DNA from: a bacterium | Lineage (GTDB): Bacteria; SAR324; NAC60-12 | Reading direction: 5' to 3' | DNA: 64,000 nucleotides | Assembly (NCBI GenBank): GCA_965205865.1 | Contig: CBDBHR010000026.1 | Span: 224,997 to 288,996 of the forward strand | In this document: piece after piece, positions 3,640 to 63,586 of the stretch | Layout of the letters: every line of letters begins with the position of its first letter | How positions within the stretch are numbered: position 1 is the first letter of the stretch | Notes under the pieces: model-generated | The model's database searches: none | The model's input: the letters and a program-made list of their open reading frames with translations, nothing else | What the model was told of the DNA's origin: nothing | Program-made: the position numbers and the translations under genes

Positions 3640-4692
3640 TTATGATTTTTTCTGCAAATATTTTTCGATGACTTTTTCGAATTGCTCCAGGGGCAATGAC
3701 CCGGAAAGGATTTCTCCCATGACTTGTTGGGCGTTGGCATCATAGGATCCGATGACAAACCCGGGTGTGCCACTGATGCCGATCGAAAACCCTTCTTCGA
3801 TATCATTTTGGACCAGTTCCCGGTATTTTTCCTCATCGACACATTGCTCAAACTTTTTTAAATCCCTGATATTGATCTGCTTGCCATATGCTTTCAGGTT
3901 CTCAGGGAATTGTTGACGTGGATGCGCAAAAAGAATCGCATGCATTTCTTCGAACTTTCCCTGTTCTCTGGCACATTCCGCGGCATTGGCGGCTTCATCG
4001 GCTTCTGTGTGAAACGATAAGGGAAAATGGCGGTAGGCAAAAGTGACTTTGCCCTCATATTTTTTGATCAATTGGCTGATGGTCGCTTGCGAACGGGCGC
4101 AAAAAGGGCATTGGTAGTCCGAATATTCCAACAACATTACAGACGCTTCCGGACTGCTGCGAATCATTGCGGATCCGACTGCTGCGGTCACCAAGAACTC
4201 TAAAGGAGGCTCTAAATAAGAGATGACCAAATCTTGTTTCAATGCACTGTTAAATTGCTGGAGTTTGTATTTGAATTCGATTTGCCGGGTGAGGAATTGC
4301 TTGATTTGCGGGGCAAACTGTTCCAGACTGCCACGCTTTTTGAGTTGATTCTGTTCATAAAAGCGCTGAATCTGATCATTGCTGATTTCGATTTGATAAT
4401 TTTCTCCAAATTCCGAATGCGTCTTTGCCAGCTTTTTCAGGATATAGCGCGGTAACTCGTCCTGAAGCGCTTCATGCAATTGCGTCAGCAAATCGTGAAT
4501 CGACTTGTTCGTGACATCCTGGAGGTGAATGGCTTCTCCTTCCAAAGTCGCAACAATGGGATTATTCGTATAAATCCGACTAGCAGAAATGGTGTTGTCA
4601 GCGGTTGGTGATCTCTCTCCTTCTTGAGCCCATGCAATCGAAATGAGGCACCCCACAGAACAACACACTATAAAAAATTTGAAGAACTTCAT
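3640..4692 (-). CDS. Exported DsbA-family thiol-disulfide oxidoreductase with N-terminal extension; start MKFFKFF at 4692
   Basis: Signal peptide, EYSDYQCPFC, YRHFPL, GISGTPGF; AAGGA RBS upstream. Confidence 0.85.
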   Translation of the reverse strand: MKFFKFFIVCCSVGCLISIAWAQEGERSPTADNTISASRIYTNNPIVATLEGEAIHLQDVTNKSIHDLLTQLHEALQDELPRYILKKLAKTHSEFGENYQIEISNDQIQRFYEQNQLKKRGSLEQFAPQIKQFLTRQIEFKYKLQQFNSALKQDLVISYLEPPLEFLVTAAVGSAMIRSSPEASVMLLEYSDYQCPFCARSQATISQLIKKYEGKVTFAYRHFPLSFHTEADEAANAAECAREQGKFEEMHAILFAHPRQQFPENLKAYGKQINIRDLKKFEQCVDEEKYRELVQNDIEEGFSIGISGTPGFVIGSYDANAQQVMGEILSGSLPLEQFEKVIEKYLQKKS

Positions 4693-8560: not shown

Positions 8561-10256
8561 CCTAAATCCTGCAATTGAATATTTTGATTGAGTTTCCCCC
8601 CACTCTTTGAGAGGTTTTTTTAAAAAAAAGGATTTGAGAGTTGAATTTCCATCAGTCCTTGCTCATAAAGGTTTTTCCGCCCTCCATTAGATCGTCATAT
8701 TTTGTGATGATCTGATACCCGCTTTCGCGGGCACAAGATTCAAGACGTACTTCTCCCTGGATTTGGGAATCTACATCTCAGCAAAATGTATCCACTGGAG
8801 TGAAACAAAGGATCCAGGTCTCTCCAACAGCGACCCATGCATCCCATTGAGCATTGTAAAGTGTTCTTTCCGGAACTCTCAGTTTTTGTTGACGAGCGCC
8901 ACTCGTCCATTTTCCTGCCATTCGGACAAGATAGGTGCGCATGGTGGCCGGTTCCCAACGGCGCAGTATTGCGTTACCACTACAAAGGGCCATCCAGCGC
9001 AGCGTGTTGTAAGCGAGTATCGCGCATTGGAACAAGGCACTGTTGGCCCAAAAATCGTCGGTTTTAATCTGAGCCAGCGCAGTTTGATTTTTTGCTTCCT
9101 CAATCCATGTCTCAGCGACCGCCCTTTGGCCATACTCTTTGTGAGCCTGCCAGGGAGTGAGCGCGTCAGTGAGAACATAACAAAAATAATCGTACTCCTT
9201 CATCTCAAAGAGGGTGGCCATCCCTTTGAGTTCCTCCTCTTTCTCCCTGCGTACGGCCATGAATTTTCTTGACCTCCTCCAAGTTTCACATTGGTGGGAA
9301 AACTCACACCCTTCCCAAGCGGGCTGCCCCTTCACTTTTTGCCATTTTTGGGTTTCCAACAACGAGACAAGCCCCTTGAGTTTGACCTTGATCAGATAGC
9401 CATGGCCTCGTTCTTCGAGGAAATCCAGCAAATCCCCCACAAAAAAACCACTGTCTCCACGAAACAGAGTGCGAGTCCGATTTGGAAGGTGAGCGAGAAG
9501 TTGCCGCATGAATTCAACGACTCCATTGCTGGTATAGGCACTCCCATCACGAAGCCAACCCTGAAGAATCTCCTTTGTCTCTGCGCAAAATGCCAGCAGA
9601 GGATGATACGAAGCTGCACCGCGTTTGTGGGGATTATATCCGACAGACACTCCTTGCTGCTTGCCGTAGGCCGTTTTCACAGTGGAGTCCACGTCAATCA
9701 CAAGACAGTGTAACACCCCAACGATGCTTGTCCCACTTCGAAGCGCCTTACGCCAGATACCGGCTCGAATCCGATGGTTCAAGCTCTCCATCTCATTGAT
9801 GTTTTTCTGTGTGAAAGTACGCAGTATCCGGCCGAATGTGGTTTCATCCGGAATCCTCAGCCAACCGGCCACACGACTCAAAACACGGTCGTTCCAAACT
9901 GTCACAATCGAACGAATCGAACGGGCGCCACCAACAATGCCGACCACCGACAAAATGACCATGTCCACCGCGTCATAAAGACCCGTGGCGCCACGCCGAT
10001 GATCTACGGTCTGCTCTGTCTTTGAAACAATCCCTTCTTTGTGAAAAAATTTGACAACCGGAATCAAGCCTGCTTGCGCGGTCAGGTCTCTGCCTCCCTG
10101 GCTGATATGGATGTTTTTTGCTGTCGTTCTTGCCGATCTTGCGCTACCTTTGTTTTTCATGGTAATGGTGATCTCTTAAAATGTTGATTCTGGTGTTAAC
10201 TATTTGAGTATATTACCATTTCCATGTTTGATTGTCATCTAATTGCAGGATTTAGG
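8561..10256 (-). mobile_element. IS1380-family insertion sequence, 1696 bp, 16-bp perfect TIR CCTAAATCCTGCAATT
   Basis: TIRs at 8561-8576 and 10241-10256 enclose the transposase; no target duplication seen. Confidence 0.9.
8778..10160 (-). CDS. IS1380-family DDE transposase, apparently intact, 460 aa
   Basis: VIDVDST, GYNPHKRG, FRGDSGF, YGQRAVAETWIEEAK. Confidence 0.9.
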   Translation of the reverse strand: MKNKGSARSARTTAKNIHISQGGRDLTAQAGLIPVVKFFHKEGIVSKTEQTVDHRRGATGLYDAVDMVILSVVGIVGGARSIRSIVTVWNDRVLSRVAGWLRIPDETTFGRILRTFTQKNINEMESLNHRIRAGIWRKALRSGTSIVGVLHCLVIDVDSTVKTAYGKQQGVSVGYNPHKRGAASYHPLLAFCAETKEILQGWLRDGSAYTSNGVVEFMRQLLAHLPNRTRTLFRGDSGFFVGDLLDFLEERGHGYLIKVKLKGLVSLLETQKWQKVKGQPAWEGCEFSHQCETWRRSRKFMAVRREKEEELKGMATLFEMKEYDYFCYVLTDALTPWQAHKEYGQRAVAETWIEEAKNQTALAQIKTDDFWANSALFQCAILAYNTLRWMALCSGNAILRRWEPATMRTYLVRMAGKWTSGARQQKLRVPERTLYNAQWDAWVAVGETWILCFTPVDTFC

Positions 10257-13992: not shown

Positions 13993-14012
13993 TCCTAAAA
14001 TGGGGTCAGGCT

Positions 14013-14715
14013 ATGCGCCAGGAAAGCTGGCAAGAAATAGAGAGTGAAAGTCTCTTACTCGGTAAGGCAGTAACGACCTGCCGAGTCCCCGAGTCATGAG
14101 TGGTTATTCGCAAGGATAGGCGCTAAGCGTTGACAGGGGAGAACATAGGCTCGGTATTGAACTCCGAAATCATAGTTTCAGGCGCTGACCTTGTAGTCTG
14201 GTGGGGAAGGCAATAACAACCGAAGGCGTTAGCGTGAGTCTCGGCTGAGCCTGGCGGAGTCAAAGACCCGGTGCATGTGTGGAAGTTTCTTGATCGGAAC
14301 CTGGGAGATCCTGAGGATGACTGTCAACATTCCATTGGTAGTCGGATCGGGAAAATTAATAAATAACCCCGATATCTACGTCTTCAGGAAGTCGGACAAG
14401 TTCGTAGTAGCGATGAAGCGGCGAACAATGAGATCATTTGTAGAGAGTAACAATGCAAAGGAAATCAACGGAGCCTGTGGAGCAAAGGGACTTGGCTGAG
14501 AGGAATTCTGCTTGCCCTCCTGTGTTCGGAACTCAGAGGCCGGTAAAATCAGAGAGCGGTTTAAGCAGGGTGCGCCAAACGGCGAATCCGAATCAACGTT
14601 TGAGCGTCTGACTCGAAGCAGGAGCCGGATGCGTTAGCAGCGCACGTCCGGATCTGTACCGGAGGAATGATGAAAGGTGACTGAAAGTCACTATAAATCA
14701 GTTCTTTACGGTGAC
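14013..14715 (+). mobile_element. ORF-less group II intron (703 nt), derivative of the 61299 intron
   Basis: Aligns to 61299-63255 except for deletion of 61873-63126; begins ATGCG instead of GTGCG; keeps domains V and VI and ends GGTGAC. Confidence 0.9.
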
Positions 14716-15182
14716 GTGCGCCAGGAAAGCTGGCAAGAAATAGAGAGTGAAAGTCTCTTACTCGGTAAGGCAGTAACGACCCGCCGAGTCCCCGAGTCAT
14801 GAGTGGTTATTCGCAAGGATAGGCATAAAGATTTAGATGATTTAGAAAATTTACCCTAAGCGTTGACAGGGGAGAACATAGGCTCGGTATTGAGCTCCGA
14901 AATCATAGTTTCAGGCGCTGACCTTGTAGTCTGGTGGGGAAGGCAATATCAACCGAAGGCGTTAGCGTGAGTCCCGGTCGAGCCTGGCGGAGTCAAAGAC
15001 CCAGCGCATGTGTGGAAGTTTCTTGATCGGAAACTGGGAGATCCTGAGGATGACTGTCAACATTCCATTGGTAGTCGGATCGGGAAAATTAATAAATAAC
15101 CCCGATATCTACGTCTTCAGGAAGTCGGACAAGTTTGTAGTAGCGATGAAGCGGCGAACAATGAGATCATTTGTAGAGAGTA
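14716..15182 (+). mobile_element. Second tandem copy of the same intron, 5' part only, with a 31-nt AT-rich insert at 14825-14855
   Basis: GTGCGCCAGG starts immediately after the 3' end of copy 1; truncated just before the RT start codon. Confidence 0.88.
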
Positions 15183-15575
15183 ATCGGGATAGGAAGGGGG
15201 TTTTCTCCCCTCCCTCCCACAGCACCACTCATACGGGTCCGTAAGTGGCGCCTCGCCTACTATCAGGTAGAGGTATCTAAACGATACCAAGTGTCTACCG
15301 CGCCTTGGCGGGGTAATGAATCTTAATCCATAGATCACGCAAAGAAACCATTCCCTGTTTAGCAAGAAAGTCATCTGATAAGCCCCAGTTGGTTGCTTGC
15401 GTCCGAGAGAGTCGCCAGTATCCTTTTCGGCTGAGGCCAATACTAATGGACAGCTTTACATGAACTCCCAGCTTGATCAACTCTCGAATTTTCGTACGAG
15501 GTTTCCTCCATTGTTTGATGTAGGCCATACGAACCCGTCTTCGAAGCCATCCTTCCATCTCCACGATAGAATCGG
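15183..15575 (-). mobile_element. 3' half of a different, class C-like group II intron: maturase C-terminus plus domains V and VI
   Basis: EGWLRRRVRMAYIKQWRKP...KGYWRLS...LRDLW maturase tail; minus-strand end ...CCTTCCTATCCCGAT. Confidence 0.85.
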
Positions 15576-15615
15576 GGTCAGGCCTGTGACTTTGGGAATT
15601 TAAGTTCATATTTCC

Positions 15616-28429: not shown

Positions 28430-28686
28430 AGTCCCTGAGGGACGAAAGAAAGTAGCCCAGCGATTTATCGCTGGGTACAAATGGCTCCTTCAAAGTCCCG
28501 GAGGGACGAAACAACAATGAGGTCTCATATCCCATGAAAACATAATCTTAAATATGATGAGTGTTATATTTTGCATTAATTCGCTCGACCGAAGAAGTGT
28601 CGTCTCTCTGGGACTAGCTGAGAGGAAGGGGGTTTCCTTACCCAGCAATGAATTGCTGGGCTATACCTTTTCGTCCCTCAGGGACT
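28430..28686. repeat. REP/MITE-like element with ~48-bp imperfect inverted arms; matching copy at 36113-36369
   Basis: AGTCCCTGAGGGACGAAA...CCCAGCGATTTATCGCTGGGTA with its inverted counterpart ending GTCCCTCAGGGACT. Confidence 0.8.
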
Positions 28687-36064: not shown

Positions 36065-36391
36065 TCGTTTTGCTACTGGTAAATATGGGTTTGAGATTCG
36101 TATGTAGGAAGAAGTCCCTGAGGGACGAAAGAAAGTAGCCCAGCGATTTATCGCTGGGTACAAATGGCTCCTTCAAAGTCCCGGAGGGACGAAACAACAA
36201 TGAGGTCTCATATCCCATGAAAACATAATCTTAAATATGATGAGTGTTATATTTTGCATTAATTCGCTCGACCGAAGAAGTGTCGTCTCTCTGGGACTAG
36301 CTGAGAGGAAGGGGGTTTCCTTACCCAGCAATGAATTGCTGGGCTATACCTTTTCGTCCCTCAGGGACTGTATCATAGAAAAATCGGGATC

Positions 36392-41145: not shown

Positions 41146-41264
41146 GGGGTCAGGCCTTTGATTATTTCATTTGACGTTTCATTCTTCAAATAAACTATCC
41201 CGGAGCAAGCTCTCTCGTTGAGGCTCGATTTTCGCTTCGCTCGAGCGGAGAATTTTGTCGGATT
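41146..41264 (+). repeat. 119-bp repeat beginning GGGGTCAGGCCTTTGATTA (unoccupied intron target); copy at 59757-59875
   Basis: Direct comparison shows only a few substitutions. Confidence 0.85.
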
Positions 41265-58915: not shown

Positions 58916-59175
58916 GGCACAGCGAGAAACTCGCTCACCCCTTCTCCATTCTCTATTGCGCTGAAACTCACCCCGTCTATGCCGGGAGAGCCTTGATTGG
59001 CAAAGCTCTCCCGGTGAATTCCGTTGTCTGCTCGGGAGATAGCAGCTTTCCCCCTTCTGACCACAGGGTCGGCGCTTTCGGCTTGAGTTTCGAGGCTACC
59101 TCCAGGTTCATTTTCGTTACGGCCCGTTGTTTTGCCTGAAGGAACTCACAACCCGGAATTACTCCCACCTTGCTG
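58916..59175 (-). mobile_element. Group II intron scrap: domain I-like RNA joined to an RT N-terminal fragment
   Basis: Minus frame ANQGSPGIDGVSFSAIE (RT0 motif). Confidence 0.6.
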
Positions 59176-59756: not shown

Positions 59757-60296
59757 GGGGTCAGGCCTTTGATTATTTCATTTGACGTTTCATTCTTCAA
59801 ATAAACTATCCCGGAGCAAGCTCTCTCGTTGAGGCTCGACTTTCGCTTCGCTCAAGCGGAGTATTTTGTCGGATTTTCTGATTCTCGCACTATCCAGGCA
59901 ATAACCGACCTTGCTTCAGAGGGTTCCCTCTATTTCCCCTTGGCAATTCTCCAAAATAAAATCAATATATTTTTGAACTTTCGAGAGCATAAAATCCTTT
60001 CTGTATTTTATGCAACGCAAAATCCGTGCTTAAATCGAAGGGCTCTCTGAAGAGACCTGAATAGTTACTGACAAGGTTATGATAGAGCGATCCGTTTTCT
60101 CAATTGGGGGTTATTTCCCTCTTCAATGAAGCCACCTTCGGGCAACCACCAGGGTGCCCCTACTCATGATGAATAAAATGGTAGGGATGCCCCTTGTGGG
60201 TACCCGAAAAACGATACTGACATCTATCATAACTTCGTCATACCGTACCGTCTTTTTAGAAGTGCCCAGATAAACCAATAGTAAAGGCCTGACCCC
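59757..60296. mobile_element. 540-bp non-coding element bounded by 14-bp perfect TIRs GGGGTCAGGCCTTT
   Basis: Inverted copy AAAGGCCTGACCCC at 60283-60296; internal GTAG-type REP hairpin near 60130-60205. Confidence 0.7.
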
Positions 60297-60823: not shown

Positions 60824-61298
60824 GTTTCCTCGAATCATCGTCAAACAATTTCGTCAATTTCTTTTTTGTTTCCATGCTTTTGTGACTTCAGATAATAAGT
60901 ACCTGAGCATAAGTTTTTACCCATTCCAACCCCACCGGAACGCCGGCCTCCTACCTCCCCTTGAATGCAAGCCCAGTTGAAAAAAGGGGAGGGACACGCT
61001 CCCCTCCTTGTTTAAGGAAGGGTTGGGGTGGTCCGGCATTCTGGAGGTCAGAAAGTAGCATCTAAAATGTTAAAAAACTTTTGGCCTAGTACTTAGGTAC
61101 TCTTTCCATAAAGTGACTCAATTTATCAGAAGTCCATTCGGGAATCAAATTTAATCTTATGATCCACGAAGGGCACGAAGGAAAGTATTATAGGTGCGCA
61201 CCCTAATTTACCGCGACTGGTCCATCCCCATTCCCTCATCAAATGATCGATTTTTCTGGGCTCCAAACTTTGGGAGGGGGTCAGGAGGGGGTCAGGCC

Positions 61299-63255
61299 GT
61301 GCGCCAGGAAAGCTGGCAAGAAATAGAGAGTGAAAGTCTCTTACTCGGTAAGGCAGTAACGACCCGCCGAGTCCCCGAGTCATGAGTGGTTATTCGCAAG
61401 GATAGGCGCTAAGCGTTGACAAGGGAGAACATAGGCTCGGTATCGAGCTCCGAAATCATAGTTTCAGGCGCTGACCTTGTGGTCTGGTGGGGAAGGCAAT
61501 ATCAACCGAAGGCGTTAGCGTGAGTCTCGGCTGAGCCTGGCGGAGTCAAAGACCCGGTGCATGTGTGGAAGTTTCTTGATCGGAACCTGGGAGATCCTAA
61601 AGACGACTGTCAACATTCCATTGGTAGTCGGATCGGGAAAATTTATAAATAACCCCGATATCTACGTCTTCAGGAAGTCGGACAAGTTCGTAGTAGCGAT
61701 GAAGCGGCGAACAATGAGATCATTTGTTGAGAGTAACAATGCAAAGGAAATCAACGGAGCCTGTGGAGCAAAGGGACTTGGCTGAGAGGAATTCTGCTTG
61801 CCCTCCTGTGTTCGGAACTCGGAGGCCGGTAAAATCAGAGAGCGGTTTAAGCAGGGTGCGCCAAAGGGCGAAGAGGACTCCCCATCTTCAATTCAACAAT
61901 CTCTTTCATCACATCAACCCTGACTTACTGCGGAGAGCTTACTTTGATCTCAATCGCAACTCAGCGGCGGGAGTGGACGAGGAGACCTGGAATGAGTATG
62001 GCATAAATCTCCTGGAGCGGATTAACGATCTGCACGGGAGGATCCACCAAGAACGTTATCGTCCTCAGCCTTCTCTGCGAGTGTGGGTTCCTAAACCGGA
62101 TGGCCGTCAAAGGCCAATCGGAATAGCCGCACTTGAAGACAAGATCGTACAACAAGCCCTCGTTTGGACGTTGGAATCGATCTATGAGGAGGATTTCCTT
62201 GGGTTTAGTTACGGGTTCCGACCCGGACGAAGCCAACATCAAGCCTTAGACGCTTTGTATGTGGCCATTACCCAACGGAAAGTGAGCTACATCTTAGATG
62301 CGGATATTCAAGGATTTTTCGACACAATTCAGCATGATTGGATGCTGAAATTTATCAAGCATCGAATCTCCGACAAAAGGATTCTGCGTTTAGTAGAGAA
62401 AACGTTGCGCGCCGGAGTCATCGAAGATGGGAAGTGGTCTGAAACGGTGGTCGGAACACCACAAGGTTCGGTAGTTTCTCCAATCTATTCAAATATCTAC
62501 CTGCACTATGTTTTAGATCTATGGGTCAATCAATGGAGAAGGCGGGAAGCTCGGGGGGAAGTTTACATCATTCGCTATGCGGATGATTTCGTCGTGGGTT
62601 TTCAATATTCTGAAGATGGCCAGAAATTTAATCGCCAACTAAGAGAACGCCTCTCTCAATTTGGACTGACTTTACATGAAGAGAAAACACGCCTCATCGA
62701 GTTCGGGCGATTTGCCGCCGATAACCGGGAAAAACAAGGTCTGGGAAAACCGGAAAGTTTCGACTTTTCAGGATTCACTCATGTCTGTGACACTCGGATA
62801 AAGGATGGAAAATTCAAGCTCACCCGTCTCACCATTTCCAAAAGGTTGCGAAAGAAGCTCAAAGAGATCAAACTTGAAGCGAAACGCAAACGTCATGAAA
62901 ATGCGCATGAACAAGGAAAATGGCTCAGGTCTGTTTTAAACGGTCTGTACAACTACTATGGAGTCCCCGGCAACCGGAGTTCCTTGAATGCTTTTCGCAC
63001 GGAAATCCATCGGACGTGGTTCAAATCACTAAGACGGAGGAGTCACAAAGCAAAGAGGATGAACTGGGAACGCTTCAAAGTACTGGTCAAACTACACATT
63101 CCTTCTGTAAGGACAACCCACCCGTATCCGAATCAACGTTTGAGCGTCTGACTCGAAGCAGGAGCCGGATGCGTTAGCAGCGCACGTCCGGATTTGTACC
63201 GGAGGAATGACGAAAGGTGGCTGGAAACCTCTATAAGTCAGTTCTTTACGGTGAC
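61299..63255 (+). mobile_element. Complete group II intron (IIB-like, no endonuclease domain), 1957 nt
   Basis: 5' GTGCG, domain V GAGCCGGATGCG...CGCACGTCCGG, 3' GGTGAC; removing it restores GGGGTCAGGCC|TTTGATTA. Confidence 0.93.
61739..63151 (+). CDS. ltrA: Group II intron reverse transcriptase/maturase
   Basis: SAAGVD, PKPDGRQRPIGI, SYGFRPGRS, DADIQGFFD, GTPQG, RYADD, maturase X domain. Confidence 0.95.
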   Translation: MQRKSTEPVEQRDLAERNSACPPVFGTRRPVKSESGLSRVRQRAKRTPHLQFNNLFHHINPDLLRRAYFDLNRNSAAGVDEETWNEYGINLLERINDLHGRIHQERYRPQPSLRVWVPKPDGRQRPIGIAALEDKIVQQALVWTLESIYEEDFLGFSYGFRPGRSQHQALDALYVAITQRKVSYILDADIQGFFDTIQHDWMLKFIKHRISDKRILRLVEKTLRAGVIEDGKWSETVVGTPQGSVVSPIYSNIYLHYVLDLWVNQWRRREARGEVYIIRYADDFVVGFQYSEDGQKFNRQLRERLSQFGLTLHEEKTRLIEFGRFAADNREKQGLGKPESFDFSGFTHVCDTRIKDGKFKLTRLTISKRLRKKLKEIKLEAKRKRHENAHEQGKWLRSVLNGLYNYYGVPGNRSSLNAFRTEIHRTWFKSLRRRSHKAKRMNWERFKVLVKLHIPSVRTTHPYPNQRLSV

Positions 63256-63307
63256 TTTGATTATTTGATTAGGAATGAGTCCAGTTTTTTTGCCCCCATT
63301 TCATTTA

Positions 63308-63493
<186 letters not shown>

Positions 63494-63530
63494 CTAGACT
63501 GTTGGATTTGATTAGTCTTCACTATTTTTC

Positions 63531-63575
63531 GTTATTGTGAGAAACTGTCATTTTAAGACAGTTTCTCACAATAAC
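63531..63575. promoter_or_regulatory. Perfect 19-bp inverted repeat with 7-bp spacer upstream of an AbiEi-like gene
   Basis: GTTATTGTGAGAAACTGTC-ATTTTAA-GACAGTTTCTCACAATAAC. Confidence 0.75.
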
Positions 63576-63586
63576 GTATAGTCACA

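Follow-up and report, generated by a model that had tools for sequence, protein, structure and literature searches.

The window, by which we mean the whole 64-kb stretch of DNA that was analyzed, contains three copies of one group II intron, each detected by RF02005 with 139-159 bits (gathering score 49). The gene rmuC lies upstream of the first copy. GlyA found its best matches among named sequences in SAR324-cluster MAGs (76-77% identity). The anatomy of the copies, as observed directly, is as follows:

14013..14715, forward strand: copy 1, 703 nt without an ORF, in which intron nt 1-574 are fused to nt 1825-1957 (BLAST comparison with copy 3); RF02005 score 159 bits
14716..15183, forward strand: copy 2, a 5' fragment consisting of nt 1-438 plus a 30-nt insert at about 14826-14857; about 90% identity to copy 3
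61299..63255, forward strand: copy 3, full length, 1957 nt, GUGCG...AC
61739..63151, forward strand: RT/maturase encoded by copy 3, 470 amino acids; TIGR04416 score 344 bits against a cut-off of 300; identical to P0001
about 63162-63194, forward strand: domain V of copy 3, with an AGC triad
about 63198-63252, forward strand: domain VI of copy 3, with a putative branch A at 63248

Copy 3 carries one private change and an intact intron-encoded protein (IEP). Its termini (GUGCG...GAC) recurred in at least 30 related copies, and AUGCG was seen in copy 1 alone, which starts with ATGCG instead of GTGCG (G1 to A). The private changes of copy 1 are G1A, C67T, G149A and T204A, one of which lies in a domain I stem. 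Domains V and VI were retained in this copy (model R2, 135 bits at 14600-14715). RF00029 scored these domains with 28.5 bits, below its gathering score of 40; model R2 found them in 71 relatives. Copy 1 is probably decaying and inactive, as suggested by its deletion and its altered first base. The ribozyme of the intron family is IIB-like. In the IEP no endonuclease domain was detected, Pfam giving RVT_1 only, and the nearest PDB entries were group II RTs. The class D motif LX3AX3PXLF[V/A]HW was not evident in this protein, which ends ...HPYPNQRLCV.

In the interval from 15183, where copy 2 is truncated, to a repeat site at 15574 that is described below lies a 104-aa ORF (15295-15609, reverse strand), which matched the C-terminal 85 residues of the GsI-IIC RT (E = 3.7e-12) and, judged by this match, is what is left of another group II intron, one that lay on the opposite strand. 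Its assignment as an IS630-type gene was dropped, as the ORF had no Pfam or NCBIfam match and matched the GsI-IIC RT C-terminus instead. An IS1380-family transposase gene was found at 8778-10160 (reverse strand; 305 bits, cut-off 180), and a near-perfect hairpin of 47 nt (63530-63576, 89% self-complementary) lies about 275 nt downstream of copy 3. Peptide/oligopeptide ABC transporter genes (BPD_transp, SBP_bac_5) are present in many copies, some diverged and others nearly identical, at 16.8-18.3, 27.4-30.2, 35.1-37.9, 46.2-49.3 and 58.3-58.8 kb, and the intron copies of related loci often adjoin genes of this kind. Four matches to the Acido-Lenti-1 RNA (46-50 bits, above the gathering score) at 28430-28475 (reverse), 28641-28686 (forward), 36113-36158 (reverse) and 36324-36369 (forward) form convergent pairs in a segmental duplication of 7.68 kb carrying opp-like ABC transporter genes.

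The target repeat and its empty sites

The introns are inserted into a dispersed repeat, GGGGTCAGGCY/T (the slash marks the insertion point), of which empty copies were observed directly in the window. The occupied and empty sites are listed here; related loci are denoted by L and a number:

14002..14012, forward strand: 5' exon of the array of copies 1 and 2, with the repeat core GGGGTCAGGCT; IBS1 TCAGGCT (14006-14012), T at -1
61287..61298, forward strand: 5' exon of copy 3, GGGGGTCAGGCC; IBS1 TCAGGCC (61292-61298), C at -1
15574..15585, forward strand: empty site, GGGGTCAGGCC/T(GTGAC...), filled by a two-unit tandem of the intron in the related locus L016
41146..41157, forward strand: empty site, GGGGTCAGGCC/T(TTGATTATTT)
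59757..59768, forward strand: empty site, GGGGTCAGGCC/T(TTGATTATTT)
63306-63325: right arm of the palindromic element at copy 3, TAATCAAAGGCCTGACCCCC

The motif GGGGTCAGGC occurs eight times in the window against 0.25 expected occurrences; seven of these motifs end in C and the only one ending in T precedes copy 1. At 41146, 59757 and 63322 (reverse strand) the two halves of the empty sequence GGGGTCAGGCC/TTTGATTATTT match both flanks of copy 3, and hence both ends of the intron are fixed. Insertion was precise, as seen at 15574-15585, which is empty in the window and occupied in L016. When the intron is removed in silico, a palindromic element of about 82 bp appears, whose inverted ends match perfectly over 20 nt (GGGGGTCAGGCCTTTGATTA and TAATCAAAGGCCTGACCCCC). 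Copy 3 is inserted 12 nt into its left arm, and the 5' exon of this copy is the outer half of that arm. A second set of sites has this core but continues with TG.A.TTTG... or TGCATATTTG...; such sites usually end in T, are arranged in inverted pairs with a spacing of about 240 nt, and in L003 and L014 adjoin the Y1 transposase genes described below. A GGG(G)TCAG-like sequence also precedes the introns of the closest relatives from other bacteria (L021-L024, L083/84).

Genes for IS200-like Y1 transposases, some with a DnaA C-terminal-like domain, adjoin occupied sites in L003 (4084-4776), L014 (3929-4413) and L102 (3036-3347); in view of these neighbors, the GGGGTCAGGCY repeats may be REP/RAYT-type or IS-end sequences. 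The occupied site of L002 (2050-2060) reads GGCC/tgcatatttg, whereas the empty copies of the same subfamily at 4247 (reverse), 5771 (forward) and 6010 (reverse) read GGCT/tgcatatttg; this could reflect preference for a rare C variant or an alteration of the exon base on insertion.

Pairing of the intron with its exons

The elements of the intron that bear on exon recognition are:

14195..14201, forward strand: EBS1 of copy 1, AGUCUGG, intron nt 183-189; A183 pairs with the exon T at -1 (structure and covariation)
14928-14934, forward strand: EBS1 of copy 2, AGUCUGG
61481..61487, forward strand: EBS1 of copy 3, GGUCUGG; G183 pairs with the exon C at -1
14262, forward strand: EBS3 of copy 1, A, intron nt 250
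61548, forward strand: EBS3 of copy 3, A, paired with T63256, the first 3'-exon base
14087..14090, forward strand: CCCC of a GTCCCC segment, forming the 5' side of a structural helix with GGGG at 14136-14139
14167..14177, forward strand: bulge AAAUCAUAGUU (intron nt 155-165) at the place where relatives have EBS2

An earlier, sequence-only reading of the window had proposed that a domain I loop is EBS1 and that in each copy it pairs fully with the copy's own exon, with one G-U pair. The sequences it relied on are all present, namely the exons CAGGCT (14007-14012) and CAGGCC (61293-61298) and the loops AGTCTG (14195-14200 and 14928-14933) and GGTCTG (61481-61486). Pairing is indeed complete (6/6, with one G.U at exon -3) where an exon exists, but copy 2 has no exon of its own. 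A seventh EBS1 pair, G.U with the T at -7, is possible. The match of loop and exon in copy 1, although present, says little about present activity, the copy being degenerate, ORF-less and altered at G1.

The fold of domain I was examined with a covariance model of intron nt 1-262 built on the Rfam structure and an alignment of 103 matches, including 79 introns of other phyla with IEPs 50-63% identical. In this domain I model 91.8% of the cells were paired as compared to 70.9% in shuffles, and both sides changed in 50 of the 62 pairs; in the stem below the EBS1 loop all four pairs showed compensatory changes. The proposed loop forms the tip of a hairpin in the RF02005 match, sits on this covarying stem and pairs with the exon, which bears out its identification in the comparative structure. 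At least 5 nt of the loop columns paired with the intron's own exon positions -6 to -1 in 64-71 of 87 distinct intron/exon pairs, whereas about 11 did so with exons shuffled, and allowing small boundary offsets the pairing with the own 5' exon was 6/6 in 65 of 89 distinct relatives. For every exon position from -1 to -6 the highest mutual information was found with the expected loop column (1.26-1.57 bits), the value for exon -1 and column 374, which is A or G in the window copies, being 1.57 bits. Judged by this pairing and covariation, which were observed directly in the alignment, the RGUCUGG loop is EBS1.

Minimum free energy folding of domain I was uninformative (z about -1.3 to -1.8) and did not recover the comparative structure, and covariance models were used instead. 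An exact-pattern scan for the EBS1 hairpin gave no match in the genome contigs, and its sole match in the metagenome contigs (L001) lies inside a phage-like coding region and was set aside as chance. The domain I model also scored 23.8 bits at 59000-59091 (reverse strand), covering the EBS1 hairpin region only; this match falls within an ABC permease ORF and is probably due to chance.

EBS3 was likewise assigned from covariation. Column 492 (nt 250) formed a Watson-Crick pair with the first 3'-exon base in 60 of 62 distinct relatives (mutual information 1.30 bits). Within the close family nt 250 is A or G and the +1 base is T, except for L110/111, where G faces C. The GA/GAA internal loop under the EBS1 stem was ruled out as EBS3, since it is invariant while the first 3'-exon base varies among relatives (C in 43, A in 12, T in 11 and G in 2).

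The GTCCCC segment, which had been suggested as EBS2 pairing with the G run of the exon, had to be discarded in this role. Its CCCC belongs to a conserved helix with GGGG that is 99% paired over 82 distinct sequences, with compensatory CG-to-UA changes in 20-22 sequences, and it stays constant in relatives with unrelated exons. In relatives, EBS2 was recognized by eye in a bulge after GAAA (GCCGA:TCGGC, GCCCG:CGGGC and ACCU(C):GGG(G)U, bulge and exon, respectively). The corresponding bulge of the window intron's family, AAAUCAUAGUU, had no complement in any of about 20 exons of this family and is two bases (CC) shorter than in L021-L024. A column-wise search of the alignment for EBS2 covariation found none because the length of the bulge varies. 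From the bulge and the exons, EBS2 seems to have been lost in the intron family, even though GGG was present at -8 to -11 in four of five non-repeat sites.

EBS1 and exon variants among close relatives

Thirty-one further loci from five metagenome assemblies were reached via IEP clusters, and 22 distinct insertion sites (outer junctions) of the close family were tabulated. A-type loops (A as first EBS1 base) were found at 10 T sites and at no C site, and G-type loops at 10 C sites and 2 T sites (G.U pair), with Fisher p = 1.0e-4, a value that refers to insertions which are not fully independent because they involve few near-identical master copies, related strains and five assemblies. The state of the loop thus tracks the exon base at -1, extending to other copies the covariation that had been noticed within the window. 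When the inner units of tandems were added with the exon of their array, the counts became 11 for G-type at C, 5 for G-type at T, 11 for A-type at T and 1 for A-type at C (p = 0.002), the one exception being the inner unit of L016, which is A-type at a C site.

Further matched changes of EBS1 and exon were found within the family, altogether at -1, -3, -5 and -6, on different versions of a single short repeat. The exon TCTGGCT of L107-L109 faces the EBS1 AGCUAGG, with A-U replaced by U-A at -5; in L110/111 GGGGCT faces AGUCUC, with C-G replaced by G-C at -6; and the loop AGCCUG of L003 is a perfect complement to CAGGCT. At the ectopic sites of L009 (TCGGACC) and L013 (TCAGATC) seven pairs are still possible. 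The two G-type copies at T(-1) are those of L010 and L014. The sequence-only reading had held that the family retargets variants of one repeat family by single-base EBS changes. EBS1 bases do change together with the 5' exon on repeat variants, but "retargeting" overstates the A/G difference in view of these two copies: G pairs with both C and U, and the change from A to G therefore widens the target range and is not a plain swap.

A neighbor-joining tree of the 5' 560 nt with EBS1 masked had low resolution at 1-2% divergence. Its basal lineages were all A-type at T sites, copy 2 being the most basal unit, and G-type copies appeared in three places inside the crown group. A is therefore probably the older state of the first EBS1 base, with a change in the direction from A to G. 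The A and G types do not form clean clades, and either recurrent change or recombination must be assumed.

Taken as a whole, these observations are best explained by a proliferating mobile intron family whose choice among variants of the GGGGTCAGGCY/T repeat is driven by EBS1, an explanation that we regard as quite probable. The family would insert by reverse splicing into this repeat, the terminal sequence of small palindromic or inverted-repeat elements. The choice of site would depend mainly on 6-7 bp between EBS1 and IBS1 (nt 183-189 with exon -1 to -7) and on one EBS3-IBS3 pair (nt 250 with +1), with a canonical EBS2 bulge that no longer matches the exon. The first EBS1 base is polymorphic, A, probably the older state, occurring only beside T-ending repeat variants, and copies carrying G, which can pair with C or U, would have spread into the abundant ...GGCC/TTTGATTA variants, copy 3 being an example; other lineages show matched EBS1/exon changes of their own. 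Whereas the association of loop state and exon variant was observed directly, we infer that it reflects target selection during mobility, and three other accounts of it were weighed.

It is unlikely that the A/G difference is neutral, the site being chosen by the other six EBS1 pairs, EBS3 and the protein, and the association arising from whichever master copy was active in a given strain with a given repeat variant. Such a history would fit the G-type copies, which are largely one burst of identical copies (P0122 type), and the samples, which differ in the repeat subfamilies they hold, given that G tolerates both C and T. However, within one group of identical IEPs (P0123 type) from the same sample, a G-type unit occupies a C site (L016) and A-type units occupy T sites (L015, L019), and in distant relatives exon -1 pairs with its column as strictly as do the other five positions.

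Co-conversion, in which the exon base would be copied from the donor site at insertion and follow the intron, making the match a by-product of mobility and not of selection, appears more improbable still. The C of the occupied L002 site among three T-ending empty copies of its subfamily is what this process would produce, yet the G-type copies of L010 and L014 keep T at -1, the empty orthologue of the L016 site (15574-15585 in the window) already ends in C, and co-conversion would not account for EBS1 and exon having also changed together at -5 and -6, where the flanks have otherwise diverged. Bacterial retrohoming via full reverse splicing, moreover, is not known to rewrite the 5' exon.

Least probable of all is coincidence through drift, according to which copy 1 is dead and its exon T(-1) and intron A(+1) stem from a CpG-to-TpA double transition after insertion, with the loop A unrelated to the exon: the T beside the private G1-to-A change could be a later C-to-T mutation, three of the four private changes of copy 1 are G:C-to-A:T transitions and the other seven GGGGTCAGGC motifs of the window are C-ending, but nine other distinct T sites carry A-type introns with a normal G1, no outer junction combines an A-type loop with C, the older copy 2 behind the same exon is A-type as well, and T-ending empty sites exist elsewhere.

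It has been documented before that introns diverge in target specificity by changing their EBS sequences, and the family, in which EBS1 is likely to drive site choice, is a clean further example of a known mechanism. In very close copies and on one repeat core it provides a well-resolved natural series in which single-base changes of EBS1, and one of EBS3, each have a matching target. The series illustrates how small a change opens a new pool of sites, as A to G would turn a T-only into a C-or-T specificity that reaches the abundant repeat variant, and it offers natural donor/target pairs for working out the targeting rules of an intron that apparently lacks EBS2 and whose IEP has no endonuclease domain. 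Retargeting by EBS changes is also established in engineered targetrons, and the value of the present family lies in illustration of a principle known from them, from Thermosynechococcus elongatus and from RmInt1 relatives.

Tandem arrays, known introns and ORF-less forms

The first base of copy 2 follows the last base of copy 1 without a gap (...GGTGAC/GTGCGCC), and the two form a head-to-tail tandem behind one 5' exon. The copy at 14716 had been counted as a further case of loop and exon agreement; as an inner unit lacking its own exon it does not qualify as an independent one. Exact head-to-tail junctions recurred in L007, L008, L015, L016 and L019 (three units) in addition to the window (14013-15183), and the arrays mix full-length with ORF-less copies and A-type with G-type EBS1. 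In tandems the G1 of the resident copy faces an EBS3 of A or G, which is a mismatch. The most likely origin of the window tandem is reverse splicing of copy 1, at one T-ending site, into the boundary that the exon shared with the older copy 2; later decay of copy 1 would have deleted the ORF and changed G1 to A. The 5' unit of the tandem is the younger one, as the junction-insertion model predicts, and the order of insertions given here is the most likely one.

Group IIC introns have a CGC triad and a reduced domain I and insert after a terminator or attC hairpin. The window intron resembles them in having no usable EBS2, a short EBS1 plus EBS3 and an association with palindromic DNA. It differs in its AGC triad, its full-sized IIB-like domain I, the working EBS2 bulge of its relatives and its insertion 12 nt inside a palindrome arm and not after a hairpin, and its assignment to group IIC was rejected on the triad, domain I and the position of insertion.

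In the TeI3/TeI4 families F1-F6 of T. elongatus, EBS divergence opens new sites, ORF-less derivatives occur and repeats are targeted (Mohr, Ghanem and Lambowitz 2010, PMC2882425). Shared features are the tens of copies of one intron, the ORF-less deletion derivatives mobilized in trans and the insertion into mobile or repeated DNA (PMC2882425). In contrast, the T. elongatus introns are of the CL/IIB1 type, encode IEPs with an endonuclease domain and form nested twintrons, whereas the window intron has an IEP without this domain and forms head-to-tail arrays. Several EBS positions distinguish the T. elongatus families, which are clean clades; the window family shows single-base differences on one repeat core, with A and G types that are not clean clades, and has seemingly lost EBS2, unlike the T. 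elongatus introns.

RmInt1, RmInt2 and Sr.md.I1 of Sinorhizobium (class D, IIB3) also encode an RT/maturase without an endonuclease domain, and close relatives among them have shifted targets (PMC4615759). RmInt2 targets insertion-sequence inverted repeats, tolerates weak EBS2 pairing and makes head-to-tail double insertions (PMC4615759). These tandems are explained by an EBS3 U pairing with G1, while EBS3 of the window family is A or G. The C-terminal motif of class D, to which the RmInt1 group belongs, was not evident in the window IEP. Tandem insertion at the exon-intron junction was shown by experiment for RmInt2 (PMC4615759) and for the EcKTE56.groEL intron (IIB1; PMC12584367), in which tandems form by a second reverse splicing at this junction and do so more often for the ORF-less form (PMC12584367). 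The latter intron differs from the present one in its single essential-gene target (the groEL stop codon), its endonuclease-domain IEP, the EBS3 U.G wobble with G1 and its canonical EBS2 and EBS2a (PMC12584367).

Only two aspects of the window family go beyond this picture: EBS2 has apparently been lost, and tandems are frequent although EBS3 would mismatch G1. It is conceivable, if rather doubtful, that a IIB-type lineage lost EBS2 by the 2-nt deletion in the bulge, that a 7-bp EBS1 and one EBS3 pair would then suffice to select palindromic-repeat arms, a IIC-like strategy of independent origin, and that natural arrays of up to three units would form despite the mismatch of EBS3 and G1. If this were true, the arrays would imply relaxed checking of the 3' exon, or else a pathway different from the published U.G one.

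A second ORF-less form of 692 nt (nt 1-571 joined to nt 1836-1957), with a deletion unlike that of copy 1, was found in L014 (3222-3913), L016 (3018-3709) and L019 (1967-2658). No ligated-exon joint was found in contigs of two metatranscriptomes that carry intron RNA, contigs being of a kind that does not show absence. These contigs also contained the 692-nt form, seen as the joint 61868>63134. In run X1 the coverage of the unique flanks was exceeded at least 30-fold by the 5' part of the intron and about 9-fold by the ORF, and one run with the sequence is labeled as a sponge metagenome.
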